Positions 1,343 to 35,692 of a stretch of DNA of 64,000 nt are shown here, one piece after another; positions within the stretch are counted from its first letter, which is position 1, and the number at the start of each line of letters is the position of its first letter. The stretch spans positions 1 to 64,000 of the forward strand of contig JAMDHS010000106.1 of NCBI GenBank assembly GCA_029717555.1, read 5' to 3'. Source of the stretch: Peribolospora baueri. Taxonomy: Eukaryota. The notes beneath the pieces were generated by a model. It had not been told where the DNA came from. It made no database searches and was given only the letters and a program-made list of their open reading frames with translations. Made by a program: the position numbers and the translations under genes.

Positions 1343-4210
1343 ATGGCTCAACCTGAACGCCCATCCCAACTGCGCGGCCAGCCAGACGACGCGGCCGCCA
1401 GATGGCTCGTCCAGAAGTACGGCGGCACGAGCGTCGGAAAGTTCCTGGACACCATCACGGGAGAGATTGCTCCGTGAGTTTTCTCTTCTGTCCCAAGTTG
1501 TCCTCGCTTCTGCATTTGGTAGCTGCTATCTTGCAATGTGCTGCTACGAGTCGACGAGTTCTTCGGCGGGCTTACTGCCTTCAGCCTCGCAGACGTCATT
1601 CTGCTAACGACTGAGCACGCTTCTGCCCCCGCCCCCTTTTCCTTGCTTCTAGCAACTACCTCTCTCAACACCGTCTCGTTATTGTCTGCTCCGCTCGCTC
1701 CGGGAAGACGAAGGCCCTCGGCACCACCAACCTCCTTCTTCGCGCCGCCTCTGAAGCACTTCGCCCCCCTTCTACTCCTGGCTCCGCTGCCGGTGGTCGC
1801 TCCTCGTCCCTCTCTGGATCCTTCAGCCCATTTGGAAACGGCGGCGGGCGACGGGTTGGATCTACCGCCCATGGCTGGGCAAGCGGCGCTGCTACTCCTC
1901 AAAGGAGAAGGAGCTTGAGTAGGAGCAATAGTTATCTCGGTGGAAGCGGTCGGAACGGCGTCCGAGACCAGAACGGTAGCACTTCTAGTGCAGCAGCCGT
2001 CGCGGTGGCCAAGCTGGAGCAGACCTTTAGCAGGCTACAAATGAGTCCTACTCGAACCCCTGTCCCCGACTCGCCTGTATTGGACTCGAGCGCAAACGCC
2101 TCTCCCGCGTCAGACTCGCCCGCTCCCAACGGCGCTTCCGCTTCCCCTGCCACTTCCTCCATCACTGCAACTCCTACCGCATATCCCACACAAGATTCTG
2201 AAGAGGTGCCGATAGGCTTCGACGCAACGATCGACAAGATTTTAGAAGATCACCTCGAGGCGGCTCGCAGCGCAGTCAAGGGCGGGGGGGAGATTTTGGA
2301 AACGTTGGAGGAGGAACTTTATGAGGATTGTGAAAGGTTGAGAGATTTCTTGACTGCTACGCAGGTGAGTGGAGCGACTCATTGTATCGTCAGTGGGTTG
2401 GAAGCATCAGTAGAAAGGGAAGGCTCGCTTCACTGACCGAATCAGTGGACACGCCTTTCGGGAGCGTCGTGCTGAGCCGTTCTTGTTGACTATGTGGCCA
2501 TCTGCGTATATCTGTACCTCAACCTCAGATCATCGACGAAATTTCTCCTCGCTCGAAGGACCTCATCATCGGCGTAGGAGAAAAGTTGAGCTGTAGGGTC
2601 GTTACCGCCGCTTTGAGGGATCGGGTAAGTTGCATCGTCGTTGTGGGATATGTCTCAACTTATTTTCCTTTCAGACCGTCCATACTGATCTATCCATACT
2701 TCTTCTTCTGTTTCCTCCGTTCATCTTCGTTTCCCTTTATGCGCGTGGCAGGGCATCGACGCAGAACTGGTAACGCTGGAGGACATCGTCCAGCGCGCCC
2801 TTGCAGACGATGATGCGGACGCTAGCACAGGGGCTGGCAGTGGCCGAGACGACCCAGATATTCCGACGTTGGACCAAGCGTTCTATGCCAAGCTTGCTCA
2901 CGCTCTTGGAGATAGGCTCAGAGAGACCAAAGGCGTACCTGTCGTCACCGGTGAGCGGGTCACTTGTCTTCTTCACTTCCTCCGATATAAGACTCGTCCG
3001 GATCGCGTTGCTCAACCGTTGCCATCCTTGCATGTGCGCATATGATCCTGAAAGGATATTTCGGTGTTGTCCCCGGCTCGCTGCTCGCCCAGATTGGACG
3101 GGGTTACACGGATCTTTGTGCAGCTTTGTGTGCGGTGGGCCTAGACGCGGAAGAGCTGCAAGTATGGAAGGAGGTGGACGGTATCTTTACGGCGGACCCT
3201 CGCAAGGTGCCCACGGCGCGGTTGATCCCCATGATCACGCCGGACGAAGCCGCCGAGCTCACCTACTACGGAAGCGAGGTCATACATCCGTTCACGATGG
3301 AGCAGGTCATCAACGCACACATCCCTATTAGGATAAAAAATGTGGAGAACCCATCGGGCGGCGGTACGGTCATCTTCCCTGACGAAGGTGAGGCAGCGGT
3401 TGGTGGTGACGGAGGGGCGGTACCAAGCATTCCAGTGCCGTGGGGTGTATTCCAACTGTCGTCAGGCGCGGGCGGTGCCGGGTCGACGAACGTCGGAGCG
3501 CTACGCACTTCAGATAGACGCTATCCGACGGCGGTGACGATCAAGGACAATATTCTCATCCTCTCCGTGCTCTCCAACCGAAAGACCATCTCCCACGGCT
3601 TTTTCGCGCGCATATTCGGATGTCTCGACCGACACGGCGTCGTCGTTGATTTGATCTCCACCAGCGAGGTGTACGTCAGCATGGCCATTGATGCTGGCAT
3701 CGGAAGGCGCACGCTGGATAGGGTCGTGACGGAACTGAAAAAGATTGGTACGGTGAGTCTGTATGTCCATCGGCAGTGAAGGAGCCATCTCGGGGCGATT
3801 TGCTCACTCAGCCCACACTGTGTCCTCGCTGTCTATCGCCGCCAGGTCTCACTATCCCGCAACATGGCCATTCTCTCCCTGGTCGGCAAGGACATGAAGA
3901 ATATGGTCGGCATAGCCGGCAAGATGTTCAGCACCTTGGCCGACGGCAACGTGAACATCGAGATGATCAGCCAGGGAGCTTCGGAGATCAACATCTCGTG
4001 CGTGATCCATGAAGCTTCGAGCGCCAAGGCGCTCAACCTCATTCATTATAGCTTGTTGAAGGAGGAGGAGAGGCCAGGTGGGGCGCATTTCGGTCGTGAG
4101 TTTGAGACGCCTTTTTTCTTCCAGTTCACGTCCGCTTCGCCGACTCATGTTCTTGTTTCCGTTGTTATCGCGTCGTGGAACCTACTTGCCTCTCAGGATC
4201 ATTTTTCTGA
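1343..4210 (+). CDS. HOM3: Aspartate kinase with C-terminal ACT domains, multi-exon
   Basis: Motifs WLVQKYGGTSVGKF, IVCSARS...GTTNLL, IGRGYTDL, WKEVDGIFTADPRKVP, ELTYYGSEVIHP and ACT-like VNIEMISQGASEINISCVI. The last short exon is inferred to end at TGA 4208-4210. Confidence 0.95.
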
Positions 4211-5174
4211 TCGGCTCGCCCCGCGCCGGGTCGGAAGCACCGCGCGCGCTCCGTTCTACTTGGGACATGTCTCCTTTTGCCGCCCTAGAACACGAGGAGT
4301 TGCAACCGCACTTGCTCACTATCCTTCGCCCTTTCACGGTAGATGTCGTCTTTCCGACTGCGTTCTCTCTCGGACTCTCTCGTCCTCCCGTTTCATGTAT
4401 CTTGCGTAGATGTGTCGTGAACCTGGATGATTCGTTTCGCCCGGCGCACTCTTGCGCCGATCATTCACGCTCCTTGCCGCAAAGAAAGAGGAAGACGGAC
4501 GACAGAGACGGACAGACGAACGCTTTGGAACACGTGTTATATTCTCCACTCCCGAGTCCGGCACTCGTCCCTGTTGCCCGTCCTCAAACGTCGTCGAATA
4601 ACCCCCGGGAGCACGGACGGATTGGAGAAGAAATCGCTGCAGCGGGTGTGAGAACGAAGGACGATTGCACCTCGCAATGTTGGACACGATCGACCCTGCT
4701 CCGGCATTACAAGCACCAGCTCGACGCGGACGCGGACGGGACGACACTCTGCTCTATCCCTCGAGGACTGGATGGTGGTCTGGAGCGCATTGAGCTTACG
4801 TCCAAGAGGGCCCCTTCCGGAGAGAGAGACCATGACCCCCCCCCCCTTGATGGTCGATCCAGCCTGAGGGGAGGCAAGAAGTGCGCAAACGAGGCAGGCG
4901 ATAGCGGGGCAAGTCGGGGAGACGGGAGTCTGCTGCTCTAGCTTGTCAGGCTTGAATGGTCTGGATACGCCAGAGGTCATCTCCATCTGGGAGATAGTCA
5001 CGCAGAGGATCAGGATCCAACTCTACCTGGGACAGGCGGGCCATTGACCGGAGCTGGGGCGGATCCGTCATGGATCTGTTGATTCGCCGCCTGCACCACC
5101 TGCTCGCCCAGCATCGAAGGACCTGCGCCGGCCAATTCCGTCCGGGCAGACCGACGAATTTTGAATCCTTCTTG

Positions 5175-6939
5175 TCATCCTGACGCGCATGTTCGTCCTC
5201 CATCTATCCGACGTCTTGGCAATGGAACTTGCACATGCAATAACCCTTGTGTGGTTCGTCGAAGGCAACCCAGCAGATCGGGAGGGTGACCTGGCCTTAG
5301 GTGGAGAGCTGCCGATGTGCCTGCGAACGTCGATCCTGACGGTGTTGCACGGGCGTATACGGGTGGAGGCGAAGTGAGGCAGTCTACCGATCCAACCGTG
5401 TTTCCCTCCGGGCTGCTCACCTCGCTCCGTGCCTGTTCTATTGGCGGCGACAAAGACCATCGACCTCTGTCGCTCATCCCTTTCAACCGACTCCGTCCTT
5501 CGCCACCCCTCCGTCCTGCCGGCCGTCCCCATCGTCCGCGCCCATTCCGCTTCCGTGACTTGGCCGCTCTCATGGAGCAATCGCAGACGTTCCGCACGCT
5601 CCCCCTCGTCCTCCCACAGCGGACGACACCGCTGAGCCCAATAATTGAGCGTCGACCAGCTGTATAATGATCGGGCCTCTTTGTCGCCCGAGGGCCCGAC
5701 GCCTGCGTCGTCGTCGTCGTCGTCTTCACTCGAAGCACCCTCCTTTTCGTCTGCCTGTCGGTCGGATCCATCGGAAGAGGAGTCGAAAGCTTGATGGGGA
5801 ATGTCCTTGACACTAGCGTTCCACGCCATGGGCATGAGGAGCATATCGACCTTCCGATCGCGGCAAAACGTCGCCAGCTCGTAGAGGGAGAAGCGCGCCG
5901 TAAAGTTGTAAGCTGGACGACCGACGGATGAGCATGGACGGGAACAGGGAGGGGAACGAGACGACCGTACCGTCAGCACGACTCTCGTTCCGCGTTCCCT
6001 TTTTGCGCGGATCTTCTGGTGTGAAAAATTACGCACGGTTCAAGTCCATGCAGATGGCGACGCAGATCTGTCCTGGCCGTCATTGCAAAGGAAAGCAGGG
6101 TCTGAGATCGGGGAAGAAAGCGGGGTATCGCAAGGCGAGCATAACGAGCCTCCTCACCCGTCCCAAGATGGGAAGATCGACGACCTCAAAACCGCGGCCT
6201 TCACTCGCCCATCGCACGTCGTCTTGGAAGAGGAAACGCTTGCGAAAGACGTGGAGGAGCGTGCCAGAAGGCGATACCAGCAAGGCCGAGTTGTAGGCCC
6301 TCTCTTCAGCGGCTGCACCGCGAGAGGGCGTGAAAGAGGAGGCCTCGGGAAAGCCGGCGATGACGTAGCATCGCAGGCGAGTAGCGAGTCTGGCAGAAAG
6401 AGAATACGTCGGGGAAGGGTCCCGAGCGGGCTCGTCGCTGCTCAGACTCGAAGAGACACCTTGGCGCGTTTGGGACGTCTGCAAAGGCGGAGAAGACACG
6501 GGCGGAGGTCGCTCCAGGAAGCGCGAGATCTCGGCCGAGTCCTGAAATACGTAACCTGGGCCGAAGAAAAGCGGGGCAGGGCCAGAAGGAAGGAGGCGAT
6601 GTGCGCATTGTCAAGGCTGGGGCAAGTCGACCGACGACCCCCTTCTCGATCGTGAGCGGAGGTGTCGTCTCACCCGTCAAAGCTAGCTCCGGAAGGACCA
6701 AGACGTCGAGGGTGCCGGGCAGAAGACTGTATTGTATGTCCAACGAAAAGCGGACGCAATTAGCCAAAGCCAACGTTCGCTGAGCTTTCTTTCGCTCGCT
6801 CGGTCTTGTCTTTTCCATCTACTTTATCCCATCCGGGAACTGACCTTTGGCAGATCCGCTCTATCTTGTCCGCATTCTTCTCCACCATTCCCCATCGCGG
6901 GGCGATCTGGACCGTCGCTATCCTCACTCTCGCTGCCAT
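5175..6939 (-). CDS. NTA1: Carbon-nitrogen hydrolase, protein N-terminal amidase (Nta1-like), multi-exon
   Basis: Reads IATVQIAPRWG...LVLPELALTGY...YNSALLVSP...FRKRFLF...ICMDLNPYNFTARF...MPMAW...NYWAQR...AANRTGTE. The Glu-Lys-Cys triad and the Nta1-type ICMDLNP motif are present. Confidence 0.85.
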
Positions 6940-11960: not shown

Positions 11961-14796
11961 TCAGAGGACCGGTTGATCGTTTCCGCCGAGCACGTCGACG
12001 TTCTCCTTCTTCTCCCTTCGCTCCTCGTCCCCATCGGACTCTACGTCTACGGTCTTTCTCAACTGCGCAACTTTGTCGAGAACAGGGCCCTTTTCAGCGG
12101 GACCGAAGGTGCCGTAGTAGTCGTAGTCATCCACCTCCCCTAGCCCTCGGGGCGGGAAGACACGAGAAAGTAGGGTGTGGGAAGTGAAGGAGATGAGGAA
12201 GCCAAGAGGCCAGGCCTGTCGACGGGAAAAAAAATGGAGGACCAAGGACCAGTCAGGCATGCCGAGCTTATCTCCGCGCTGGTCGTCAACTTGAGTGCGA
12301 CGCTCGAGCTTAACTCACGAGGTAGTAGAGGTGCATCCAGCCAGAAGCGAACTCCTGCTTGCGCACGGTGGCAACGAAGCCAGGCATGAGTGGCCAGACG
12401 CCAAAGACCCAGGAAATGGCGGCTCTCCCTGCATGCGAAAAATCAAGGCCTGTTCAACAGAGCAGCACATCCGGCACGATCAAAGGCCGGACGACAACGT
12501 ACAGTTCACGCCATGCCAGAAGAAGTAGATAGATGAAGGCGTAGGGTCATAGAGGTGTGTGAGCCGGACCTTTTGTTTCCGCACGACTGTGAGGACAAGA
12601 ATCATTCGCGTTTGGTCAACTTCCATGTCGGTGCGGGAGCAGGGTTGGAGCTCGAGGGTGCGTACCGTGGTAGTCTGAAATGATCAAGCCTGTCAGAGGT
12701 CCCAGGAATACAGCATACGAGCTCATGACGGACAAGTACACGGTGGCGCCGTTGAGGAGCTGCAGTGGTCAACAGGATTGCACATATCAGTCTTTGCGCT
12801 CGGGCGCATCTCAACACTTGGGCAGCGAGCAACAAATCAAGCCTCACCTGCCAAGGCTGGATGAGAACGGCGACAGCGGCGACTAGGTAGGCACCTCGTC
12901 GAATGTTTATGTACTTCGGGCTGTAGAAACGGAAAGAAGGGGCATAAGCCATTGACAAAGTGCCCGGGAGGGTGGTCGGGTTCTCTGGACGAATAATTGC
13001 CCTCACAGTAGTCCTGAAAGGTCAATTCCACCTCCAATGGCATTGCCAGCGACGTTGATACCTGCATTGACAGCAGGTATGTAGGGGAGGAGTGTCAGCC
13101 GACATTGCACGGACAGGCTCATCACTCTATCGAGAGCAGAGAATCAAGCCGCCACTCACCAAACTGGGACACGACAAAGCTCAAGCCGGCGAAGAAGACA
13201 GCAGCTCTAGCGCCGGGCCCACCGTGCTTTTGCACAGTAGACAAGAGATCATAGGGTTGCCAAAGCAGACCTTCGTCAGGGAAGAACTGTGCAGCGCAGG
13301 AGGTGGTCACCACGCCAATGAGGGAGGTGAGGATGGCGGAGAGAGGAATGGCGAACAGTTGGGACCAGACTTGGTCGAACGGCTTCACGGCGAAACGGCT
13401 GTAGTCGCTCTGGGAGAAAATGCCGGCACAAATGGAGCCGATCTGGGTAATGGGTGAGGAAGAAGGAGAACAGCATATGAAAAGTCAACAACGGGAAATC
13501 GAAATTTGCAAAATAATTATGAGGAGAGCTTACGTTGCTTGTGATGCCGTACACGAGCATCCAGCCAACTGAAGAAGCAGGAGCAAGCGTCTTAGGAAGC
13601 ATGACTTGTCTGCTGAAGGGGAGAAATAATCGAGCCGGACTCACGGTGGGATCCGGTAGCCTGTTGAACGCCAGAGGCGCTGGTGATATTGGAAAGCAGA
13701 GCACCACCTCCACCGGCCTTGGCGAGTGCCCAGATAAAGATGGAGAAGGCGGTGATGGTGATAGAGATGGAGGCGACGAGGAAAGGCTTATGGTAGCGCT
13801 CGGGAGGCACCCAGATGAGCGGCACTGGATTGAGCGAGAAAGGAATACAAAATGAAGGATGAGGCGGCCATGTCCACAAAAGCCCAAAGGAACTAGGGGC
13901 TAGTTTGACACTTACATGAAATGATGGCAAAGATGACGAAACCGACAAAGTCGCTGACCTATGAGGTCGAGGGCAAAGAGCGCACCAATTTCAGCACCCG
14001 AAATTAAAAGCATGCCATTCGGAGGCTGAGCGAGCACGTACGTTCATGGTGCCACCAGCGAGCAGTTTGGTGAGATTGTAGAAGGAAGGCCAGATCGCCC
14101 CAATGACGATCTTGACGCTCTGTCCGCCGAACCAGACTAGTCGTAACCGAGACCGTCGGGTCAACTGTGGTGGTTCCCTTTCGCTCGACTATCCCGCACA
14201 AACGCTTGCACTCACGCTGGGTAGAATACCATGTGAAACTCAGGATGATGCGATTGAGCAAGGGGAAGAAGCTGCCCCTTATGCCCCAGACAAAGCGGTT
14301 GACGATCGGAAAGCCAACGTGCCACTGGCCGCCGGGAAGGCCGGTGCCGACGACGGCACATGCGACGATGATTTGGCCAATGATGACGGCCAGCATCGCT
14401 TGCCACACGTTGAGACCGAGAGAGATAAGCGAAGACCCAGTCGTCCCTATCGTGTCAAGCCACGGTCAAGGGGAAGCACGGTCGTCAGCGAGGTTTCAGG
14501 GAAAGGGAGCGAGAGCGGCGTTGCTCACATTGAGTTATGTTAACCTAAGAACGAAATAAACCAGAAAACTTTTCAGCGGTCTTGACCCTTTCTCAAGTAC
14601 TCTGTCTCAAGCTAATCCTCACCCCGGTCGTGAGCCAAAAACCAACGAAACTCCAGGGTCCCCATGTCCTTCTAGAAGGAGGGAGGGGAATGATATCCCG
14701 GTTAATCCAGGGCGTCGTCTCCCACTCCACCCCGGGTTCGTGTGGGACCTCAAGCTTGCGGAGAGCCTGCTTGAGAGGCGCTGACTTGGCTGGCAT
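11961..14796 (-). CDS. NCS1 nucleobase:cation symporter (Fur4/Dal4-type uracil/allantoin permease family), multi-exon
   Basis: Motifs WINRDIIPLPPSRRTW, PGGQWHVGFPIVNRFVWGIRGS, QSDYSRFA, LLWQPYDLL, KYINIRRGAYLV...IQPW and PRGLGEVDDYDYYGTF, with many hydrophobic helices. Confidence 0.92.
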
Positions 14797-15466
14797 GTTG
14801 ATTTACGTATCTGGAGCGCAGCGCTTGAAGGAGAAATGGAAGGAAGATACGGGCGCTAGGGGCGGATATGAGAGGAGGGACACCGGCTCCCTGGGCGGTA
14901 TATGACTGGCGACAGGCAGCGTTCTGGACGTTGTGACTTGACGGCCTTCTTCCTTTCCCTCTCTCTTGAGTTGTGCATGCTCTGGCCGGCAGTATATCCC
15001 TGGTAATACCGTCCCTGCTTTGCAAACGAGGTAACCGACGACGCCTGATGGCGATGCGGCGAAGACGCCCATGGAGATAACCGTGAGTGCAAGCCTGATC
15101 ACTTGCCGCCGCGTCGTGAGTCGCTTATCAGACCGGCGATCTCTCCGCAGATTTCTGGTCCGACAGGCCGGAACAAAGATATACCCCACCTCGGCGGCCG
15201 GAGACAGAATGAGAAGAACACCGAATGTAAGCGACGGCGTTGGGAGATAAGCACGCCTGCATCTTGGTCAGACTCGCTTCCCTCGGCTTGTCTTCTCGAA
15301 TCCGTCTGGCCTCGACCTCCACCAGGCTCGTGTGGCTTTGACGTCGTAGTCGAAAACCCTCGCCTTAACCGCCCATCAGACATACAAGAAGAGAAAGCCG
15401 ACCCGCTGGCCGTGACGTTCACCCCCCGTACACACCTCACACTCTCTCGTCGAAAGCTCGCCTGTC
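14797..15466. promoter_or_regulatory. Bidirectional promoter with candidate GATA (nitrogen regulation) sites and a CreA/Mig1-like site
   Basis: 670 bp between divergent ATGs. GATAA at 15076-15080, CTTATC at 15124-15129, GATAAG at 15246-15251 and CCCCAC (GTGGGG on the minus strand) at 15184-15189. Confidence 0.5.
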
Positions 15467-18400
15467 ATGCATTCTGTCATCTCCCCGACCTACCGCATCG
15501 GTGTCGATGTGGGGGGCACCAACACAGATGCCGTTGTCCTCGCACTTTCGCCCGAGGCAGCCACCTCCCCCGACCGAGGAGTCAAGGCCAGCTTCAAGAC
15601 GCCAACCACGCCTGATGTGACCTCTGGCATAGAGGAGTGCGTCAGGACCGTCCTGACCAACAGCAAGGTTCGACCGGACCAAGTTTCTGCCCTCATGATC
15701 GGTACAACGGTGAGTCCAGCGTTTCATTAAGAGTCCACCATCTCATAGACTCCTTCATGAGCCACATCACCCCTTTCATCTGACTCTTTTGCCGGACGGC
15801 TTGCAGCACTTCATCAATGCAGGTGGGTCTCGCCAACGTGATTTTAAGCGCCATTCATCGCACTGACTAGAGTCTTGCCGCCTTTCTTCTGATACGGCTA
15901 GTCGTGCAAGCGGACCCCACTCGCTTGTCCCGAGTGGCAGTCCTACGTCTCGGAGCGCCCTACACCCTGGAATGCCCGAGCTTCATCGATTTCCCTCCTT
16001 CCCTCCGTGCCATAATGGAGGGATACACTGCCGTCATAAATGGAGGTCTGCAGATCGATGGGACCGAGATCGGCAAGGTGGACGAGGAGGAGTTGCGGCG
16101 AGAGTGTGTGAAGATCAAGGAGCTGGTCAGTAACCTGTCAGGATGTACACGGACTGACGACGCTCCTAGATGACGCCTTGGCCTTCCATTTTCACTGAAT
16201 TCTTGCTGCGAATTTCTTGTTTTACCTAGGGCCTGCACACCGTCGTCATAGTTGGCATCTACTCTCCTTTGGACAAGGGAGGCTCATCGCAAGAGGAACA
16301 TGTCCGCAAGGTTATCCTCAAAGAGATGGGAGGCAACGTTGATGTCGTCTGCTCTCGCGATGGTCAGTCGACGTACGGCCAAAGACAATTTGAGAGGCGT
16401 CCGATAAACGTCTTTCTGTTTACCTGCCTTCTTCAACTCTGACTTGCTTTTGTCTCGCCGGTGTTGCTATCACAGTTGGTCAGGTGGGCCTCCTCGAGCG
16501 CGAGAACGCCTCCATCCTCAACGCTTCGATCCTTCGCTTCGCACGCCGCACGGTCCGGTCGTTCCAAGTGGCCATGTCCCGCCTCGGCCTGGGTCAGTGT
16601 CCGCTCTACCTGACCCAGAACGACGGCACCCTCACCAGCGCCGCATCAGCGGCTAGGTTGCCCATCAGGACGTTTGCCAGCGGCGCAACCAACAGCATGC
16701 GAGGCGCGAGTTATTTGGCCGGCTTGGGGGCCGGACCGAGGTTGAGCAACGCCGCGGGTAGCATCATCGTTGCAGATGGCAAGTCCATCACTTTCTTCTT
16801 CCTGAAAATTTCGTGAAGCCCGTAGCTGATCTCCATGTGAATGCTGCATGAATTTTAGTCGGAGGTACGACCACCGACGTTGGCGTCCTCCTTCCCAGCG
16901 GATTCCCTCGTCAAGCTGCTGCATTCATCGAGGTTGGTGGCGTGCGAACAAAGTAAGTCTTCCCAAGTCGACCTCTCCTCTTCTCCACATCTTCGTGCAC
17001 TTCCCTCTACCTTTATACTCAAAGTCGATTTCGCTTTTGCTCTTGCAGCTTTGCAATGCCGGACGTTCAAAGCATTGGCCTCGGCGGAGGTTCTCGCGTG
17101 CGTTTCCAGAAAGACGAGAATGGCAAGCTGGCCAAAGCCGTCGTAGGCCCTGAGTGAGTGGAGGCAAAAAGATCCTGATGGTTGTGGTTATCGGCCTTGC
17201 TGAATGTCTGGAGGTTCGGATCTCCTCGCTTTCTGGCGGTGTACAGCTCCGTCGGCTACAAGCTCCTGTCCGAGGGCCTCGTTTTCGGAGGCACAACTCC
17301 CACAGCGACTGACATTTTTGTAGCTTCGTCGGCTGCATCGACGGCGCCTTCGTCTGAAAAAATTGGCGACCCTAGCAAGGTTGAAGGTCGTTTCGCAGCC
17401 GACGAGTTGCGCGAGGCGCAGAAGGCAATGAAAAAGCTGATGGAAGGCATAATCGACAGAATGAAGACCAGCCCTGAACCTGCTACTGTGCTCCTTGTGG
17501 GCGGTGGCAGTGTGATTGCTCCGGACGAGCTGGAGGGTGTTGGAGGTACGTACGGAAAAGCTCCGGCCTAAACAAGGACCGTACCTGTCGGTGGTTCTCG
17601 ACTCGAATCCACACCTGCTCACGACTTCATTCTCCTCGTGGTGCGACAGAGCTTATCCGGCCTCCCTTCTTTGCCTGTGCGAACGCCGTCGGAGCGGCAG
17701 TCGGGTCCGTCAGCGGGGAAGGTATGCACATTCGCTCTTTTACTTTCACGACCGACCGGCTTACGCACGGTCGCCCTTGTCTATGTCTTCGCAAGTCGAC
17801 ACGATCAAGATCCTCCAAAATCGCTCATTGGACGAGGTGGTCGAATCGCTCAAGACCGAGGCCATCCTCAAGGCTCAGAAGGCGGGCGCAAAGAAAGAAA
17901 CTATTAAGGTCGTCGAGGTGGAGAATTTGCCTGTGCAGGTGAGGTCGACGTAATTTTGAGGACATCATTGGAGAACCCATGTTAGGACGATGCTGACGAT
18001 TGTGATCCATTTGGGAACTCCGATGTCAGTATGTGACAAACAAAGCCACCCGTCTCATTGTCCGCGCGGTCGGCGAGCTGGACAATGAAGTCTTTGCCGC
18101 GAGCACCGAGTCCGCGGAGGCTCAGAAGGCAGGGCCCATTGGAGACGGATCTGAGGACGATGAATCCACTCCGGAGACCAGCTTCTCCAGGCCTGTGCCT
18201 GTGGCTCCGGAGGTGGATATTGCTGCGTATCGACCCAACGTCACCAGTGAAGGCGTATGGGAGCTGAGCGAAATTGACCTAGGTAAATTAACGTCGCTGA
18301 GGTCGTATCTTCTTTGGTAGAGCTATTTATTCACTTATCCTTCGCCTTACGTGCCGCCCCCGCCGAACAGAATGGATTTCCGAAGGCTGTGGCATCCTAG

Positions 18401-20803
18401 GCACCGGCGGCGGTGGTTCTCCCTACCCTCCCTATCTGATGGCGAGGGAGATTCTCCGTCAAGGTGGGAGCATTCGCGTGCTCGATGCGAGCGCTCTTCC
18501 TGATGATGCTATCGTAAGTGAATGTTCTCTGGGCTCGTCATCCTTGCTCTTGAGTTGACTCGCCCGCATGAAGGTGTCACTGATCCTAATCCTTGTTTTG
18601 TAGGTGCTGCGCGGGCACTTCATGGGGTAAGCTTCATTGCCACCTTCTGCTCAGCCGATGCCGTAATGGTCAGTTGAAAATGTCTAACACCAATCCCGAT
18701 CGAACAACCACAGCTCGCCCTCCGTGTCGAACGAGCGCCTCCAGTCAGGATATGAAGTCGAGACAGCCGCAAGGAACCTGTCGAAGTACCTTGGCATCGC
18801 TAAGGGTGCTGCTATTATTTCGTGAGCATTTTGCTCTGTGGCTCTTGATCTTGTACAAAAGCACTCATTGATTTTGCTTCCCTCTCACAGTGATGAGATT
18901 GGTGGAGGCAACGGAATCCAGCCTATGATCCTTGCTTCACAGAAGCACCTGGACGTGCCCGTCTTTGATGGTGAGATGCTCGTAGGAGAGCGATGGTCCT
19001 TATATCATTCTTCCGAAGTTCCCAATTCAAGCTAACTTGCACGACTGGTTTCGTGTTGCGAAGGCGATCTCATGGGTCGGGCTTACCCCAACATGCACCA
19101 GAGTTTGCCCGCCGCCTATGACGTGAAAGACAGGTGAGCGACGACGTTTTCCCCTCGCCATCCGAAGACAGAAACTCAAGCCGTGCTCCCTGCGGGCGTC
19201 GTCTGGACCATCCGCCTTTTTTGTATAGCCTCACGCCCTGCGCGATTGCAGATGGCGTGAACAACTCGGTGGCGAGTCGAATGGTCGCCAATACGGATCT
19301 CATATTGTCCGAAACTGCACTGACAATGTCTCGCTTGACCATCGTTGATCAGGTTCTGCCGTCTACTTCGACCAAGTGGCACGTCGAAGCAATGTGAGCT
19401 TTTCAGCATCCTCCTCCGCCCGTCTGGGATGTGCCGTTTGCTAAACGCTTCTCGTGGACATTCCCGTTCTGATGTCCAGTCTCAGAGGCGTGTGCACAAC
19501 GCTGGGAAGCAAGGCTGGCGTCTCAATGGCACCTCTCACGGCCAAGGTTTGCCGCGACTTCGGTGTCACTAGGACGGTGTCCCAAGCGTGGAGGATGGGC
19601 AGGGCCGTGGCCGAGTGCAGGAAGCGCAAGTGAGTTTAACTTTCTTCCGTGTATTCCACCGAGCGTGTGGCAACTGACCAAGCCGGACCACATATGGTTG
19701 TGCGGCTTCCCTACGACAGTGACGTCAAGGGTATCCCAGCGGCCATTCTCGAGCTGCAGAACGGAGCATGCATCTTCATTGGCAAGGTCAGTCGAGCCGA
19801 GGCACCACAGACTTCAGTCCTTCGTTTCCGTCCATTTCGGAGGTCGCGGGCTGAACGATGCATTAATGCGCTTCCCCTAGATCGTAGACGTGCAGAGAGA
19901 AGTCCGCGCCGGCTTCACGTGGGGGTCCGTCCGAAGTAAGTAAAAGTCAAGTCTACTCTCGGGCGATTCACGTTCTTCCCCGCCCCACTCTTCGTCAGTT
20001 TTGCCCGGCCCGACTCCGCCTCGTAGTGGGATACTGCTGACTCTTCCTTCACCGTCACTCGACGTGGCGCGACAGTCGCTTCCTTGGCGGAAGACGAGCA
20101 AGAGATTGCGCCAACGGCGACGGTCGCGAAGAACGGACATGATGAGGCGACGGAGAATGCGGAGATGACGATTTCATTCCAGAACGAAAACCTGGTCGCG
20201 ACGCTCGAGATGGCGGACGGGCGAAAGAAGGTAGGTGAAACTTGGGTGTTGCCGAAAGGCCAAGCCGGGCCCAAGATCGATGCGGGGCTGCGATGAGGTC
20301 GTCGGAGCAGGCTTTTCCGCCCCGCCGCGCAACGACATGCTCTGACTGAATTGGTTGTTGTCTTTTGCGTTGAACGCTCTTTTCGCTACACACAGGCGGT
20401 GGCAGTGGTGCCGGACCTCATCACGGTGCTGGACAGCCAGAGCGGGACGGCTTTGGGTACGCACGAGTACCGTTACGGCCTCAGAATCACCGTGATGGCC
20501 CTGGCCGGCGATCCCAAGTGGACCACCCCCGAGGGTCTCGCTTGCGGCGGGCCTGCTGCGTTTGGGTGAGTACCGAGGACGTGTGCGGGTGGCACTTGGT
20601 ATACTTGGACATCCGTTCCGGCCGCCCACGCGCAAGAGGAGCGGCTGAAGGGAGGGTCTCGCTTCCCTTTTGTGCACTGTGCGTGAGTCTCTCCTCGCTG
20701 ACGCTAGGACCGTTTCACTTCCAACAGGTTGACGGACGTGGAGTGGGTGCCAGTGGGAGAGTACAAGGAGCCTCGTTCAGTCATAGAGGAGTTCAAGCAG
20801 TGA
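15467..20803 (+). CDS. Hydantoinase-A/5-oxoprolinase ATPase domain fused to a C-terminal DUF917 domain, multi-exon
   Basis: N-half: RIGVDVGGTNTDAV, IGTTHFINA, ERENASILNA, LTQNDGT, FASGATNSMRGA, DVGGTTTD, SIGLGGGS, LVGGGS, ANAVGAA. C-half from about 18220: GILGTGGGGSPY, EIGGGNG, DGDLMGRAYP, ISFQNENL, PDLITVLD, YRYGLRI. Stop TGA at 20801-20803. Confidence 0.9.
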
Positions 20804-20936: not shown

Positions 20937-22932
20937 TTAAATTGTGTGAAAGTCGTAGGACACGCCGCTGTCGCCACGCTCTGGCCTTGAGGTCGCCGTC
21001 GTTGCTGACCCGGTGCGACCCTCTGGCCCATGTTTCCAAGCTTGACCGTCGTCCGTCCTTCCTTCTACATTCCGTCCCATTTCTTTCGCCTCTCCTGCTT
21101 CGTTCCTCTTTTCTCTCGCCAACTCCTCCAAACGCGCCCGCCTCGCTTCCTCTGTCGCCCTCCGCGCGGCCTGCTCCCCCTCCGCTTCCCATTGCCGCCG
21201 CTCCCACTCATCTGCGGGAATAATCCAAAGCAAGCGAAAGCGGGGAAGAGCGAGTCAGCGCTTCGCTCGACTCTCGAAGAACAAGCACGCGCTTGCACAA
21301 CACGAAGACGGAAAAGAGAGGATTGCGAGGCAGAGAAAAGAGAGAGAGAGAAAAAAAAAAAGAAGAAGAAAAAGGAAGGAAGAGAAGAGGAAGAGGACGC
21401 GGAAGCGGACGACGCACCCCAAGTCTCCTTCTCATCGAGCCATCTTTCCTGGACATGACCGATCTCTCCCCACGTGGCGATGCTCGAGTCAGCGACGCTG
21501 AACAGTGCCGCAGAGTTGATCGTCGTCGGGTCCTTCACCGCCGCCGCGGCGCTCGCATCGGGTGGAGAGGAGGCTGAAGGCGGAGTGAGGGCTGGTGTGG
21601 AGAAGGCGTACCCGGTGGCCTTGTCAAGCGTTCGGAGGAGGCGCATCATAGACAATTTGTCCTGCATAGATGACGCAAGAGAAGTATTAGACCATGCACA
21701 CCGCGAGCGTGATATCGGGTTCCACATCCATTCAAGGAACGAGTGAGACTCACCTCGACAGCCAAAGTCTCAAACCCGACGAGTCCAAAGTCCTCGACAA
21801 TCTCACATATAGCTCGGTTTAGGTCCCGAAAACGCTTCGCGTGTGGGTCCTTTTCCAGCTCCATCTGCAAGTAGGAGAGGTCTTGCACTTCGGTGTAGTA
21901 ATCTAGGTTGAATGCTGATAGCGAGCGGGTCCGAGGAAGAGGGAGGCCTGGTGAGAGACCCCTTCCAAGGTGCAGCACAGGCGCAACCAAAAATCTCACC
22001 CAGCTCTCCATACTGCGATAAAATATCGATCTTGCTTAAAACGTTAACGTGGGGAAGTTCTAGTTGGAGCATAGTGCGGAGGGAGAGGAGGAGGACAGAG
22101 GTGTACTTGGAAGCGTCTGTCACATAGTGCGCATCTGTCAGGTGGACGGCCACGAGCTGGGAATGTGCCAAGAGGGAGGAGATCAGCAATGACGCGGGTC
22201 AAATGTGAGATTCGCTTCATCCCATAGAAGGACGGACGAATAGGGCAGACGAGCGCTTCGTTCATGACGCCCACTCACGCGAAAGTCGAGCTTCTGCAAC
22301 CTCTCAACGATCATCTTCAGTGCGGGATGGTTAGTACTAAGCTCGACCTGGCCGGCGACGTCAAAGAGTACGTAAGCGCCCTTGCCCAACTTTGCCAACC
22401 GCTCCTCCAACCAGTCCATGTTCTGGAGGAGGTACTCCATGCAGTATAGCATGGCGCCGTTGGGGCCCAGGCCGAACTCCTCCATGACATCTTGGAGAGT
22501 TATGAGATCGTGGATGTTGACTGCGCAGGGATAAAGGATGCGCTCGTTCGCTGGGTCCAGGTTGACTATCGAGACGGGCCGGTCGAGGGCAGTGAGGAAC
22601 TTTGGTGGTGGCGGGTGCAAGCAGGGGAAGCGCGTGATGAATGGGCAGCGGAAAGATGAGCGGAGAAGCGGGTTCAAAGCGCTCAAGAAAAGAGGTCTTA
22701 CCTGGTACATGCCATAGCTATTCAAAGATGCAATGTTCGAACAGCGCACGGTCAGCACGGCCCTGGCTACGCCTCTCCGAGAGAGCTCACCAATACGTGG
22801 TCTTGCCCGAGCCGGGCGGGCCGATCTACCGAGAAAGCAGAGGGAATGTTAGCATTGCCGCCCACAGCATACCACGACAATCAGACGCTCGTAAACACGC
22901 ATCAGGCTCACCACCACCTGTCCAAACGGCAT
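20937..22932 (-). CDS. GPN2: GPN-loop GTPase 2, multi-exon
   Basis: Reads MPFGQVV|IGPPGSGKTTYC...VNLDPAN...LGPNGAMLYCMEYL...FDVAGQVEL...LELPHVNVLSKID...LDYYTEVQDL...DKATGY. Confidence 0.92.
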
Positions 22933-28518: not shown

Positions 28519-31111
28519 TCAGGGCATGGTCAGCTGGCCGAGGGAGCGGTTGACGGTGTGGGTGATCTGGTTCTTGGCCTTGCTCATGCCCCTGCTCCAG
28601 ATGCCTGAGCTGCAGGAGGACGAGTTGGAGGGAGAAGGCGAAACGGAACGCTCGATGCGAGCGCCTATAGTGGCACTGTTGGCTCGCTGCGGGGGCGTGA
28701 AGGTGTGCGCTGGCTCGCGGATGGCGGGAGCCGGTGCCGGTGCCGGTGCCGGGCGAGGGTAGCAGAATGCAGCGTCAAAGTCCGGTGGCGCGTCGAGGAC
28801 GCCGGGATTGTTGGTCTTCGCAACAGGGCGAGGAGGCGGCCCGCTTGTTGTCGGCATCGGCATGGAGGAGAGAGAAGAGAAAGAGGAGACGGAGGACGTA
28901 GGATCGTGGCGGACGTGGGGCAGGTCCGCAAAGCGTTCCAGGCTTTGCAAGCTTCCCTGGGAGTCTTTACGGCAGAAGGTGGGCGATGGCGAGGGGGACG
29001 ACTCGTGGCGCTCGCGGTCGCGGTCACGATCGCCCTTGCGAGAGGAGCCGCGAGTGAAGAAAGAGCGGATGGAGGAAGGCGAGTGGAGACCGCGGAAGAT
29101 GTCGTGCTCTGGCGTACCCGGGCTGACGGGCAACTCGTCCATCGACGAAGGTGCTCCGCCGAGGAAGGCGGAAACCAGTTGACCCTTGCCCCTGGTGATA
29201 GAGCCGGCCGGAGAGCCGCTCTCAGAGCCTCTGGATGGCGACAAGGAGAGGGCTGTCGGTCCGGTTAGCGAGTAAGATCGCTGAAGAATGGGAACGGGCT
29301 GCTCTTGCTGCTGCTGCCCGACCACATCGGAGGCCGCCGTCGATGGCCTGTTCGCCGTCGGCTTGCGCAAGTCGTCCAATGGGCCTGCAGAACCTTGCCT
29401 CTGATGAGGTAGCGTTGAACGCTGGACTCTGGAATCAGATGGAGCCATAACGGCCGTCCGCTCGGGTGCGCGTGTCGAGTTGGAGAGGGCCTTGGACGCA
29501 TACGGAGTCCCTGGGTGTGGGGCGCCAAAAGGCTGCAACAAGGGCCGAGGAGGGCCAGTCTTTCGAACCAGAGCCGGGGCCTTGACACCTTCGGTGAAGT
29601 GCGCCAAAGCCAAAGGGGCCACCGAAGCGTTCTCCTGAGGGGCAGAGGTCGTGGCTGAGAAGGACTTGTCGTCGTCATCCGACTGGCTCCCCGCTTCAGA
29701 ACGCGCGTAAATTCCCCGATCTGAACGCGGGCTGCACGAACCATCGTCCTCGTCGGCGGACGACGAAACACCCTGACCCTGGTCACGGCGACGGCGGCGA
29801 CGAGAAGCAGATCGGTCAAGCCGGTTCGCTTTCTTGGCCGCCATCTCCTTGAACCAGTGGAACGAGGACCTGAGCTCGTTAAGGCTAGGAGAGCCCTCGC
29901 TGCGCATAGCAGCTCCCCTCTCCTCTTCCGTGGTATTGGGCCCAAGGCCATAAAAGGCGTCGATGAACTCATGCCAGGTATTGGGGAAGTCATCGTTCGT
30001 CGCCATGCGTGGCGCAGGCGGTTGCTCCTCCGGGGGAGCTTCTGGAGCCACGGGAGCCCTAACCGGAGGCCTGTTGGCTCCTTGAGCAGGTGCCGGGACC
30101 GGTGTCGTGGTTGGAGTTGCGACCGGGGCCGCCAACGGGGCCGGTACTGGCGCCGCGACCGGTGCCGCAACCGGTGCTGGGGCAAGAGTATGTCCCCGGG
30201 TCGACTCGCTTTCCTTGGGCGCTTCTTCGACCGCTTTGGTGACTCGGTTCGCTACTTCAGCCGTACTTCGGGCAGCAGCAGCAGGAGGTGATCCGGTCGT
30301 CTTCGACGCATTCGCTTGAGAGGAAGGCTCGGGCGAGGGAGACGAGCCGTCCACGTCCTTCGCCTCGTCCGCTTTCTCGACGCTGCCTCGCTCCGCGCCC
30401 GCTCGATCGATCTGCTCGTCCATCTCGGACCGGCCATCGACGGCCTCGTTGGCAGGGGCAGGGGCCGTCGGGTGGTGAAGAGTAGCGGCGCTAGAATCAG
30501 CTCCCCCTCCCCCTCCGCCCCACACCAAAGGCGTCCCAATAATACCATGCCTCGCCTTCCTATCCTTCCGTCTCGGCCTCAGCCTCTCAGACCGATGAAT
30601 GGCCAATTCCTCAACAAGACCTCCCTCGCCGCCGACGCCGCCGCCGCCATCGGCATTCGTCGTCGTCGTCGTACTACCCGCCGCCGCACCGGGCCGGAAG
30701 GTCATATCAACGGAGCGGGACACATAGGGCAGTACGCCATTTTTTCGGAACATCCGACCCCCCGTCGTCTTGGTCTTGGTCGCGGCCGCGTCTGAGACGG
30801 CGGCAGGAGCGGAGGCGACGGAGCAAGAGGAGACTGTGGAAGTGGTAGACGAAGACTCGTAGCCGCCGTCGCCTTCGCTCTCCACGAGGCTCGCTGCTGA
30901 AGAGGCGGATGCGGTGCGCAAGTGGCCGGCGGAGGAGGGTACGGAGGAGGCTGGGGACGACGGTCGCTGAAGGGCGGTCGGGTCGGGATTGGGAGAGGTG
31001 GAGCGAGACGCAAGGTTTTCTTCAATCGTCGAAGCGGACGCCTGTCGACGCGCATTGTGGAAGGTGGTAGACCATGGTCGAAACGAATCCTGCTGCTGCT
31101 GCTGCTGCTGC

Positions 31112-31142
<31 letters not shown>

Positions 31143-32778
31143 GCTGCTGCTGCTGCAAGTTCGCCAACAGCATCAACTCTCGAGGACCGGAGTGAGGGGA
31201 AGGCGACGTCCGGCCGGTGGCCGGCGTAACCGACGTGGTGGACGCCGATGCAGAGCGACCGCGCTGGCCTGCAGGCAAAGCCGCGCCCATGGCGTCTGAG
31301 CCGGACCGGAAGCGCTTGTCTGCTGTACGCGCTGGGGCGCTGACAGTGCCAGACGCTGGTGTCGTCGTTGTCGCTGTCGCTGATGCCTCTGCGTCGGTCT
31401 GCTTCTGCTGCTGCTTCTGTTGCTTCTGTTGCTGCTGTTGAGGACTCGGAGAGAAGACGGAGGAAGCGGAAGACGCGGTGTCCATGGGCGTCGGCGAGAA
31501 CAGGCTTGAGGCTGGTCCGGCGGACGTGGACCCGGACGACGGAGTGGTGGGGGAGAACATGGCAGAAGACGCGAGGCGGGTGTTTGACGACGACGGAGAG
31601 GGGTCCACCGGCGCGTCCTGCGAGGGTCGAGAGGAATGGAGGGAGAGGAAGTTGAGCGCCAAGCCGATGTCGTTCTCGTTGGAGTGTGCCTTGGAGGGGG
31701 AGCCGCTTCTCGGGTTGCCGCTCGTTGACCCAGCACTGTTCACCACTCTCATCGGAGCGGGAGAGGCGTTGAAGGGGGTCGACCGACGAGGAGAAGGCGG
31801 ATCATGGAGGGCGGCGGCGAGGTGCATGGCGACAAAGGCAGCGGATGTGAGCGGTGGGTCGGCAAGCACCTCCTCCTTCAGGTCGTCATCATCCGAGTCC
31901 CGCCTATTCGTCGGCGGCGTCCGTGATGGCGGTGCGACGTTCCGGACGGCCTGGCCGCGGTCTGCTTCGCGCTCGCTAAAACTCTCTTTCGCTCGTCCCC
32001 CCTGCTCGTATCCCGATACGGAATTCCCTCTAGGTCGAGAGGAGGAAGAGGATGGGCTTTGTATTGGAGCGTGACCGTCCGCGAGCGCCGGCGAGGCGGC
32101 GGGACTACTTGCCCTGAGGTCAGCGATGGATATGCCACGAGAGAGCTCGTCAAAGACGGCGGACATCTCGTCGGCCATGCTCCTGATATGCTTGGTCGTG
32201 GACTTTTTCTTCTTCCTTCCCGTCGAACCCCCTGGGCTGGATCGGGCGGAGCTGGTGGCGCGGAGTGCGGGTTCGGAAGGGCGGGAGTGAAGAGAAAGAG
32301 AGTAGGGTGAGGAAGAAATGGATGATGGCACGGCCGTTGACGTCGTCGGCCGGAAGCGATCGGAGGCTGACATGGGCGGGGAGAGGGAGGCAGAGGAGTA
32401 CACGGAGCGGAGGCTGGGTGCTGAAACGGGGGTGGGGATGGAAGAGGAAGAAGCTCCGAGGTCGGGATGATGGTAGAAGGCCTCTCCGCTGCGTCGAGAT
32501 GTGCGACGGCCTTCGACGGGGGTGAGAGAACGGGCAGGGGAGAGCGGGCTTGCGATGGAAATGCTGAGCGACGGTGGTGGAGAGGAGTGGCCCTGGAAGC
32601 GAGAGACGACGGCGCGGGCGAGGGGAGAATGGGAGGACGGCGTGGACGGCGAACCGGTCTGTGCGCTTGGGTAGGAACCCGCTGATGAGGCTCGCGAGAA
32701 GGGCCATGCAGTACCGCTTGTCCGAGAGGGGGAGGCTGCCAGGCTGTCCGACGGCCCAGCGTTTGCGTTTGGTCGCAT
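28519..32778 (-). CDS. Large intronless, Ser/Pro-rich, largely disordered protein of unknown function (1419 aa) with a polyQ tract
   Basis: 4.26 kb uninterrupted ORF of low-complexity composition with no recognisable domain. Confidence 0.75.
31090..31155 (-). repeat. (CAG/CAA)22 coding repeat giving Q22
   Basis: CTG/TTG triplets on the plus strand, in frame in the 1419-aa ORF. Confidence 0.95.
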
Positions 32779-35607: not shown

Positions 35608-35692
35608 GGGGGTTTAGATCAGATGGTAGATCGCTTGCTTCGCATTCATGAGAACATGCAAGAGGTCCAGGGTTCAATTCCCTGAGCCTCCA
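35608..35692 (+). tRNA. tRNA-Ala (anticodon CGC) with a 12-nt intron at 35645-35656
   Basis: Acceptor stem GGGGGTT/AGCCTCC with the G3:U70 alanine identity pair; D arm GATC/GATC; anticodon stem CTTGC/GCAAG; T loop GGTTCAATTCC; discriminator A; downstream T-runs consistent with a Pol III terminator. Confidence 0.95.

Follow-up and report, generated by a model that had tools for sequence, protein, structure and literature searches.

Permease genes are linked to genes for catabolic enzymes in the yeast DAL cluster and in bacterial hyu operons. Here, we describe such a pair in a stretch of 64,000 nucleotides from Peribolospora baueri (GenBank assembly GCA_029717555.1, contig JAMDHS010000106.1, positions 1 to 64,000; the whole stretch is referred to as the window), in which an NCS1 permease gene lies head to head with a gene for a fusion enzyme that joins a HyuA-like half to a DUF917 half. 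The fusion shares Hydant_A_N, Hydantoinase_A, and both DVGGT motifs with the HyuA/HyuB enzymes (the caprolactamase CapAB, N-methylhydantoinase, and 5-oxoprolinase), and in the fused N-methylhydantoinase the partner likewise follows HyuA in one chain. It differs from the classical enzymes in carrying no Hydantoinase_B, in having as its partner DUF917, whose only solved relative is 2o3i, and in the short length of its HyuA part (about 540 residues versus about 690 to 710). The thiohydantoin desulfurases and the protein CV_3147 share PF06032 and PF20906 with the DUF917 half, and a fungal half has the fold of 2o3i. Unlike the desulfurases, it scores at a tenth of their equivalog cutoffs and is fused to an ATPase or, in prokaryotes, encoded beside one. 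Prokaryotic HyuA-like and DUF917 operons match both halves end to end and are also transporter linked, but their genes are separate, often in the order DUF917 then HyuA, and mostly stand beside Opp/Dpp-type ATP-binding cassette (ABC) importers. The permease shares PF02133 with the fungal Fur-type NCS1 proteins (FurA, FurD, and FurE of A. nidulans; Fur4, Dal4, and Fui1 of yeast) and with the bacterial hydantoin permease Mhp1, and its closest named homolog passes TIGR00800. Unlike the known Fur transporters, the partner subfamily is defined here only by its neighbor gene.

An initial annotation of this DNA had proposed a self-contained fungal module for the uptake and catabolism of an N- or S-containing heterocycle. 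We find that the pair is conserved among fungi and that the HyuA-like half has no HyuB, as proposed, while the sulfur ring and the supposed bacterial habit of pairing with NCS1 fare poorly. We consider it probable, if not by much, that the pair forms a conserved module that imports and breaks down a small cyclic amide or ureide, in which the HyuA-like half would activate the substrate with ATP and the DUF917 half would hydrolyze it, probably under nitrogen control.

Two intact genes share a divergent spacer

Spliced models were built with our own protein-guided aligner, with database homologs as guides. They confirm the head-to-head pair to the base, with coordinates identical to those first assigned and a single 670-bp region between the two start codons. 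The features of the pair are as follows.

11961 to 14796, minus strand: NCS1 (Fur-type-like) permease gene (PF02133 matches; spliced alignment to the homologs P0052, P0053, and P0057)
14796-14623, 14544-14529, 14446-14216, 14136-14042, 13958-13916, 13824-13645, 13568-13534, minus strand: permease exons 1 to 7 (high to low)
13442-13160, 13061-13007, 12920-12848, 12759-12666, 12586-12503, 12428-12319, 12215-11961, minus strand: permease exons 8 to 14
14797 to 15466: shared divergent spacer of 670 bp, presumed bidirectional promoter (sequence inspection, HGATAR sites)
15075-15080 (plus), 15125-15130 (minus), 15245-15250 (plus): HGATAR sites (GATA-factor type) in the spacer
15467 to 20803, plus strand: HyuA-like/DUF917 fusion enzyme gene (spliced model; 24 exons, 1021 residues)
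15467-15709, 15807-15822, 15902-16125, 16230-16362, 16476-16778, 16859-16952, 17049-17153, 17247-17545, plus strand: fusion exons 1 to 8
17650-17721, 17796-17938, 18030-18282, 18371-18513, 18604-18626, 18714-18821, 18891-18970, 19064-19133, plus strand: fusion exons 9 to 16
19229-19271, 19353-19393, 19480-19629, 19720-19786, 19881-19935, 20076-20230, 20396-20565, 20728-20803, plus strand: fusion exons 17 to 24
15488 to 18032, plus strand: HyuA-like ASKHA ATPase half, residues 8-545 (Pfam on exons, own profile)
18033 to 18260, plus strand: acidic, low-conservation linker, about residues 546-621 (between the two profile envelopes)
18261 to 20800, plus strand: DUF917 half (S-Me-THD_N and S-Me-THD_C), residues 622-1021 (Pfam on exons, own profile)

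The fusion gene runs from an ATG at 15467 to a stop codon that ends at 20803, and all 23 of its introns (69 to 165 nt) have GT/GC-AG borders. The permease gene encodes 575 residues in 14 exons, from an ATG at 14796-14794 to a stop that ends at 11961, and its introns are GT-AG in 13 of 13 cases. Model-dependent borders of the fusion gene are 19786/19881 and 20230 versus 20245 in its 3' part, together with the 16-nt exon 15807-15822. This predicted micro-exon encodes a conserved "HFINA" motif and has GT-AG introns of 97 and 79 nt on either side.

The window exons follow the profiles of fungal homologs collinearly from one end to the other, and the enzyme aligns with residues 9-998 of P0008, a fungal homolog of 1002 residues. 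It retains 181 of the 183 columns that are invariant among 39 full-length fungal fusions. Its best matches are from Heliocybe and Gloeophyllum (67% identity); the window DNA is intron rich, and its nearest proteins are those of Agaricomycetes. Both genes are thus intact and strongly constrained.

The permease-fusion pair recurs among fungi

To survey synteny, we scanned metagenome contigs with an alignment of 14 fusions and annotated the resulting 80 loci with profiles from fungal proteins. Fungal-type loci, with a GC content of 0.43 to 0.57 and the fusion either as one open reading frame (ORF) or split by introns, account for 22 of the 80, and 16 of these have enough upstream DNA to be judged. 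A divergent NCS1 gene lies directly upstream of the fusion in 12 of the 16 (L080, L081, L082, L085, L086, L088, L089, L091, L092, L095, L096, and L097), separated from it by about 480 to 1900 bp between the first aligned codons. Because L095, L096, and L097 are near-identical, this corresponds to 10 of 14 lineages. At L104, the NCS1 gene is instead found about 2.5 kb downstream of the fusion and convergent with it.

Ascomycetes (two groups), a yeast-like contig without introns, and the basidiomycete window are represented among the paired loci, whose fusions are 41 to 52% identical between these groups. The yeast-like copy, L091, is 69% identical to Saccharomycopsis and Pichia proteins. Domains encoded in the flanks of the fungal loci include Fungal_trans, Zn_clus, HET, Fung_rhodopsin, RTA1, SUR7, and RRN3. 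All of these other neighbors vary from locus to locus, so that only the permease-fusion pair is conserved, which upholds the idea of a two-gene module. Across 66 pairs from 12 loci, fusion identity and partner-permease identity correlate at r = 0.95. This value and the shared NCS1 clade described below fit the co-inheritance of an orthologous pair, without proving it.

Some flanks show further differences. L083 and L086 share their downstream genes (mitochondrial carrier, Pyr_redox_2, and fungal rhodopsin), but the upstream NCS1 gene is present at L086 alone; L083 has a methyltransferase and a sugar transporter in its place, a contrast that looks like recent loss or relocation of the permease. 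Zn-cluster/Fungal_trans genes occur within a few kilobases of the fusion in 4 of 12 fungal loci (L082:17821-19914, L092:13834-14940, L098:15015-16184, and L104:5424-6869). In some lineages, they could encode regulators specific to this pathway; no such gene was seen beside the window pair.

The fusion is a large and already annotated family

One DUF917 exon used as a query retrieved 51 proteins, 44 of them Hydantoinase_A and DUF917 fusions of about 1000 residues from Agaricomycetes and Grosmannia. With the intronless copy L091 as the query, 4957 proteins were found at E <= 0.001, and 119 of the 120 matches listed have the fusion; these include Kluyveromyces lactis, Eremothecium gossypii, Lachancea, Ogataea, Scheffersomyces, Cyberlindnera, and many Pezizomycotina. 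Pachysolen and Kuraishia each have three fusion paralogs. Several ESM Atlas clusters have this architecture (127, 142, and 70 members); they are exclusively eukaryotic and come mostly from Ascomycota. The fusion is therefore neither rare nor a new architecture but a large family of Basidiomycota, Pezizomycotina, and budding yeasts, and several homologs are already named "HyuA and DUF917 domain-containing protein."

Other existing names, such as "hydantoinase" and "hydantoin utilization protein A," have been assigned by similarity. The A. gossypii protein ACR027C is labeled dihydropyrimidinase (EC 3.5.2.2) by an automatic pipeline (PMC4190384), a label that its domain content does not support. 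The amidohydrolase (TIM-barrel) domain is found on no fusion exon and in none of the precomputed domains of 171 listed homologs. In line with the initial annotation, which knew of no defined substrate, our literature searches turned up no experimentally defined substrate for the fungal fusion. A "hydantoinase/oxoprolinase" and an NCS1 "uracil permease" of Clonostachys rosea are among six genes induced against both prey fungi (PMC5999205); we did not use them as evidence because their identifiers are nonadjacent and their family membership is unconfirmed.

DUF917 occupies the position of HyuB behind a HyuA-like ASKHA half

Pfam searches of single exons place Hydant_A_N (PF05378) at 15467-15727 (53.9 bits) and Hydantoinase_A (PF01968) at 16394-16813 (25.4 bits), both above the cutoff, and our own HyuA profile matches this half over positions 2-523 with 828 bits. 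The same two domains are precomputed on 42 of 51 homologs. The window protein contains two DVGGT phosphate-binding motifs, at residues 14 and 306, whose residues are invariant across 40 HyuA-like proteins. In caprolactamase, the ATP site lies in the HyuA-type subunit CapA, where D11 and D295 are required, and a zinc site lies in the HyuB subunit (PMC8453981); we matched D11 and D295 to the window motifs by motif rather than by residue-level alignment to CapA. An AlphaFold model of the ortholog P0008 has a mean predicted local distance difference test (pLDDT) score of 69.5, with values below 50 at the linker-equivalent residues 565-595. Its N-terminal half matches N-methylhydantoinase (9h03_A, E 1e-23) and CapA (6yra_A), and its C-terminal half matches 2o3i. 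The two DVGGT motifs, the requirement for D11 and D295 in CapA, and the HyuA-type fold of the ortholog together make an ATP site plausible.

No exon of the fusion gene matches Hydantoinase_B (PF02538), and tblastn with two bacterial HyuB proteins detects no HyuB in the 64-kb window (best E 1.9). PF02538 is likewise present in 0 of 51 and 0 of 120 homologs among the matches listed. The domain content is accordingly that foreseen in the initial annotation (Hydant_A_N, Hydantoinase_A, and DUF917, without Hydantoinase_B), and DUF917 does occupy the position that HyuB has in the fused N-methylhydantoinase.

In the C-terminal half, S-Me-THD_N (PF06032, the former DUF917) matches at 18301-18555 (60.7 bits) and 18826-19032, S-Me-THD_C (PF20906) matches at 19445-19630 (45.4 bits) and 20297-20566 (83.6 bits), and our own DUF917 profile matches over positions 2-395 with 668 bits. 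Its conserved motifs are GGGGS, EIGGGNG, DLMGRAYP, and VPDLITVLD, starting at residues 641, 722, 748, and 944, respectively, and the glycine-rich and D-x-D-x-MGRA-x-P motifs are invariant over 53 DUF917 domains. When the DUF917 half of the L081 copy was modeled alone from a 53-sequence alignment (pLDDT 93.6), its sole clear fold match was 2o3i (Foldseek E 4.5e-18; VIA-align Z 38.7, root mean square deviation 2.5 over 341 residues), the structural-genomics protein CV_3147 of unknown function. This entry is also the only one recovered by a DUF917 profile search of PDB sequences. Other folds (CobE/CbiG-like and VirB10-like) scored Z 4.5 or lower and were taken as noise, and no HyuB chain appears among the matches of either fold search (Foldseek or VIA-align).

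Two NCBIfam equivalogs lie inside the DUF917 superfamily, thiohydantoin desulfurase (NF058529) and S-methyl thiohydantoin desulfurase (NF058532), and their names bear out the desulfurase annotation cited at the outset for one DUF917 protein. Scored with the ortholog P0008 in place of the window protein, the fungal DUF917 half obtains 32.9 and 45.7 bits against these models and bacterial HyuA-linked DUF917 proteins obtain 76 to 127 bits, whereas the cutoffs are 440 and 450. Scores this far under the cutoffs indicate that HyuA-linked DUF917 proteins are distant paralogs, not orthologs, of the desulfurases.

The partner permeases form one NCS1 clade

PF02133 (Transp_cyt_pur) matches three of the six permease exon ORFs (63.6, 43.3, and 15.5 bits; profile positions 29-296), and positions 5-546 of an NCS1 profile that we built from 30 fungal homologs match the permease exons in consecutive order. 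With a 19-residue window and a threshold of 1.4, a crude Kyte-Doolittle scan detects 8 segments, versus the 12 expected of NCS1. The close homolog P0052 passes the NCS1 model TIGR00800 (374.5 bits; cutoff, 353.1), reaches 183.5 bits against the allantoin permease model PRK11375 (under the cutoff of 620), and has no match to a cytosine permease model. Judged by this proxy, the permease appears nearer to the allantoin and uracil permease models than to those of cytosine permeases. Its homologs are labeled "uracil permease" by their sources.

We then placed the partners in a FastTree phylogeny of 119 NCS1 proteins, comprising 76 representatives (drawn from 1.8 billion cluster representatives), 30 named homologs, 11 partners, and 2 bacterial sequences. 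All 11 partner permeases of usable length fall in one clade of 63 tips (support 0.96).

GATA-type sites are enriched in the shared spacers

The window spacer contains three HGATAR sites versus 1.4 expected by shuffling, and only 16 of 372 same-size windows along the 64 kb have at least three. In a set of 11 spacers (that of the window and those of 10 loci; 9.3 kb in total), we counted 69 sites, whereas shuffles predict 25. Sites occur at 7.4 per kb in the spacers versus 2.06 per kb in the remainder of the same loci, and the commonest 8-mers among the spacers contain GATAAG. GATA factors drive nitrogen-catabolic genes in fungi. The approximately threefold enrichment is a hint of nitrogen control, and only a hint because other fungal promoters do not figure among the controls.

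Prokaryotes have a two-gene counterpart

A scan of prokaryotic genomes seeded with stand-alone DUF917 proteins yielded 79 loci, and in 71 of them a full DUF917 gene is followed on the same strand by a full HyuA-like gene of about 520 codons. The pair is also present in 42 of the 58 nonfungal metagenome loci, mostly as HyuA then DUF917, and the exceptions are mostly contig ends. Profile positions 2-523 of the fungal HyuA half are covered by the prokaryotic HyuA-like gene, and both fungal halves match the two-gene unit end to end. In trees that include these members of bacterial operons, a comparison recommended at the outset, each fungal half forms a monophyletic group (support 1.0), suggesting a single fusion event.

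At least two DUF917 genes, usually in tandem, occur in 21 of the 58 nonfungal metagenome loci (e.g., L125:10001-13731 and L110:9974-13765), and the archaeal Halobaculum locus L073 has three. Tandem paralogs suggest a hetero-oligomeric DUF917 partner in prokaryotes, in contrast to the one domain of fungi.

We used Pfam to scan the neighbors at 20 prokaryotic loci with long flanks, considering ORFs of at least 560 nt within 4.5 kb and filtering high-GC contigs by GC content at third codon positions (GC3). Regulators of the PucR, LuxR, IclR, and AroM-GerE types are found by the pair, and a classical HyuA/HyuB pair is next door in two of the 20 loci. In a group of actinobacterial loci (L005:4009-7956 and L110:15738-19752), a classical HyuA (about 700 residues) with HyuB adjoins the DUF917/HyuA-like pair, indicating that the two systems coexist there and that neither replaces the other. 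In the data of PMC7513527, consecutive accession numbers of L. rhamnosus belong to HyuA-family, DUF917, and cytosine-permease proteins.

Other genes in the window

Directly downstream of the enzyme gene is a GPN-loop GTPase gene (21649-22848, minus strand; PF03029 on three exon ORFs), a housekeeping neighbor, which indicates that no larger catabolic cluster extends from the pair on that side. About 5.4 kb beyond the 3' end of the permease gene, an exon-sized ORF (6083-6610, minus strand) matches the carbon-nitrogen hydrolase family PF00795 (27.4 bits), which takes in N-carbamoyl-amino-acid and beta-ureidopropionate hydrolases. We rejected it as a third pathway gene because no CN_hydrolase flanks the pair in any of the 12 other fungal loci scanned, so that its link in the window is probably a coincidence. 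Elsewhere, the window contains the following.

2991-4406, plus strand: aspartate-kinase-like gene (AA_kinase and ACT)
28522-33093, minus strand: open frame of 1524 residues without a Pfam match, in the most GC-rich part of the window (GC 0.61-0.65)
35608-35692, plus strand: tRNA-Ala(CGC)
47795-50173, minus strand: TAF5-like gene (TFIID_NTD2 and WD40)
56304-57389, minus strand: Glyco_hydro_cc hydrolase gene
59783-60397, minus strand: PROPPIN (Atg18-like) gene

Discussion

The recurring head-to-head NCS1 gene, the end-to-end match to a prokaryotic two-gene unit, the enrichment of GATA-type sites in the spacers, and the ABC transporter context in prokaryotes are what this analysis adds to an enzyme family that was already annotated. 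Gene structures, domain content, the lack of HyuB, conservation of the pair, the prokaryotic counterpart, and the enrichment of GATA-type sites are observed; ATP use, chemistry, catabolic direction, regulation, and substrate class are inferred. The NCS1 permease would bring in a small ring compound that resembles a nucleobase, hydantoin, or ureide, or a cyclic amide closely related to these, which the cytosolic fusion enzyme would then process. The HyuA-like ASKHA half of this enzyme may bind ATP and activate a carbonyl group of the substrate's amide or ureide, in the way that HyuA subunits act in caprolactamase, N-methylhydantoinase, and 5-oxoprolinase. The DUF917 half would carry out the hydrolytic step on the activated ring in place of the unrelated HyuB subunit. 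The 670-bp spacer probably serves as promoter for both genes and probably places them under GATA-factor (nitrogen-catabolite) control. As to the substrate, the fungal NCS1 partner favors a ring of the hydantoin, ureide, or nucleobase kind, and it is in keeping with such a substrate that the thiohydantoin desulfurases act on hydantoin-type rings.

Several observations weigh against this import-plus-catabolism module. The adjacency seen in most of the assessable metagenome loci is not universal: no NCS1 is present at 3 of the 16 (L083, L098, and L100), and in the Polyporaceae Trametes cingulata, Pilatotrama ljubarskyi, and Cubamyces lactineus the nearest NCS1 gene is on another contig than the fusion. 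A correlation of 0.95 and a common permease clade are expected of any two orthologs that track the species tree. The enrichment of GATA-type sites was measured against shuffles and whole loci, not against other fungal promoters, and the window's own spacer has only three of the sites. Fur-type specificity, according to PMC5307856, is unreadable from sequence. Our literature searches found no biochemical characterization of any HyuA-linked DUF917 protein. Finally, the initial annotation had suggested that bacterial DUF917, HyuA, and NCS1 genes often co-occur; this is true of HyuA with DUF917, but an NCS1 gene is adjacent at only 2 of the 20 scanned prokaryotic loci, and parts of Opp/Dpp-type ABC transporters (SBP_bac_5, OppC_N, and oligo_HPY) are found at 15 of them.

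The ABC importers point to peptide-derived rings, at least in the sampled prokaryotes, and the fungal module could accordingly have as its substrate a 2,5-diketopiperazine, a 5-substituted hydantoin derived from an amino acid, or another lactam, and not a ureide of nucleobase or purine origin. DUF917, AroM, and hydantoin-racemase genes are enriched together with di/oligopeptide transporters in cyclodipeptide-oxidase-like clusters, as reported in a preprint (bioRxiv 10.1101/2023.09.25.559410), and an AroM-GerE gene is present in the prokaryotic locus L124. However, the fungal partner is always an NCS1 protein of the allantoin/uracil permease type (to judge from P0052, which stays below the PRK11375 cutoff), no peptide transporter is conserved beside the fungal gene, and the substrates given for known Fur proteins in the literature cited are uracil, allantoin, and uric acid. 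We consider a peptide-derived substrate for the fungal module unlikely, though worth keeping in view.

It is improbable that the adjacency is only historical, with the permease an ordinary uracil, allantoin, or uridine carrier and the enzyme acting on an unrelated endogenous metabolite, for instance in the repair or recycling of a damaged cyclic metabolite. The loci and the three Polyporaceae species in which the adjacency is lost would suit such a history, as would the "uracil permease" label of the permease homologs and the three paralogs of Pachysolen and Kuraishia, which exceed the need of a single paired module. Yet the head-to-head order is kept from the basidiomycete through filamentous ascomycetes to the yeast-like contig while every other neighbor changes. 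The two NCS1-adjacent prokaryotic loci, L074 (Streptomyces flaveus) and L155 (cytosine-permease-like, with a match to PRK11017), have NCS1 proteins of a different subtype, which suggests that transporters were recruited repeatedly, and such independent recruitment to the same enzyme pair also speaks against mere history.

The chemistry could also be other than hydrolytic, and the HyuA-like/DUF917 enzyme could catalyze an ATP-dependent carboxylation, isomerization, or ligation in the manner of the acetone and acetophenone carboxylases. The fit of the P0008 model to chains of acetone carboxylase (5m45_B and 5svc_B) and acetophenone carboxylase (5l9w_B) is about equal to its fit to caprolactamase, and there are weak NCBIfam matches to ApcA and ApcC. 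These carboxylases, however, need HyuB-type and further subunits that are absent here, the DUF917 relatives of curated function are hydrolytic, and a dedicated importer suits catabolism, all of which make this alternative very improbable. The weakest of the substrate proposals, to which we give hardly any weight, is the sulfur ring of the initial annotation, by which the module would scavenge a thiohydantoin or S-alkyl-thiohydantoin (e.g., one derived from ergothioneine) with the DUF917 half as a desulfurase: the two desulfurases are the only curated functions of the superfamily and the DUF917 halves do match both models, but the scores of the fungal and bacterial HyuA-linked copies fall far short of the cutoffs, no ergothionase- or urocanase-like gene lies beside the 12 scanned fungal loci or in the window flanks, and, to our knowledge, a desulfurase that works by plain hydrolysis would not be expected to require an ATPase partner.

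Beyond the import-plus-catabolism module itself, we tentatively propose, with more doubt than conviction, that HyuA-like and DUF917 proteins constitute a second, HyuB-free class of ATP-dependent ring-opening enzyme. In fungi, this enzyme may have been fused and joined with its own Fur-type importer before the split of Ascomycota and Basidiomycota, and it may serve a nitrogen-rich heterocycle that is not among the known fungal nitrogen sources. Archaea and bacteria would perform the same chemistry behind peptide-type or NCS1 importers.

The window copy is an ordinary, intact member, and the interest lies in the family, an orphan enzyme type tied to an importer across Dikarya. Thousands of fungal genomes carry this enzyme of about 1000 residues under misleading names ("hydantoinase," "hydantoin utilization protein A," and even dihydropyrimidinase). 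An importer kept with the enzyme over hundreds of millions of years, together with a prokaryotic operon, makes the search for the substrate a well-posed problem, and tractable yeasts carry the fusion gene, with a promoter that is likely nitrogen regulated. Identifying the substrate would define the role of ATPase-coupled DUF917 and would give one orphan clade of Fur permeases its substrate.

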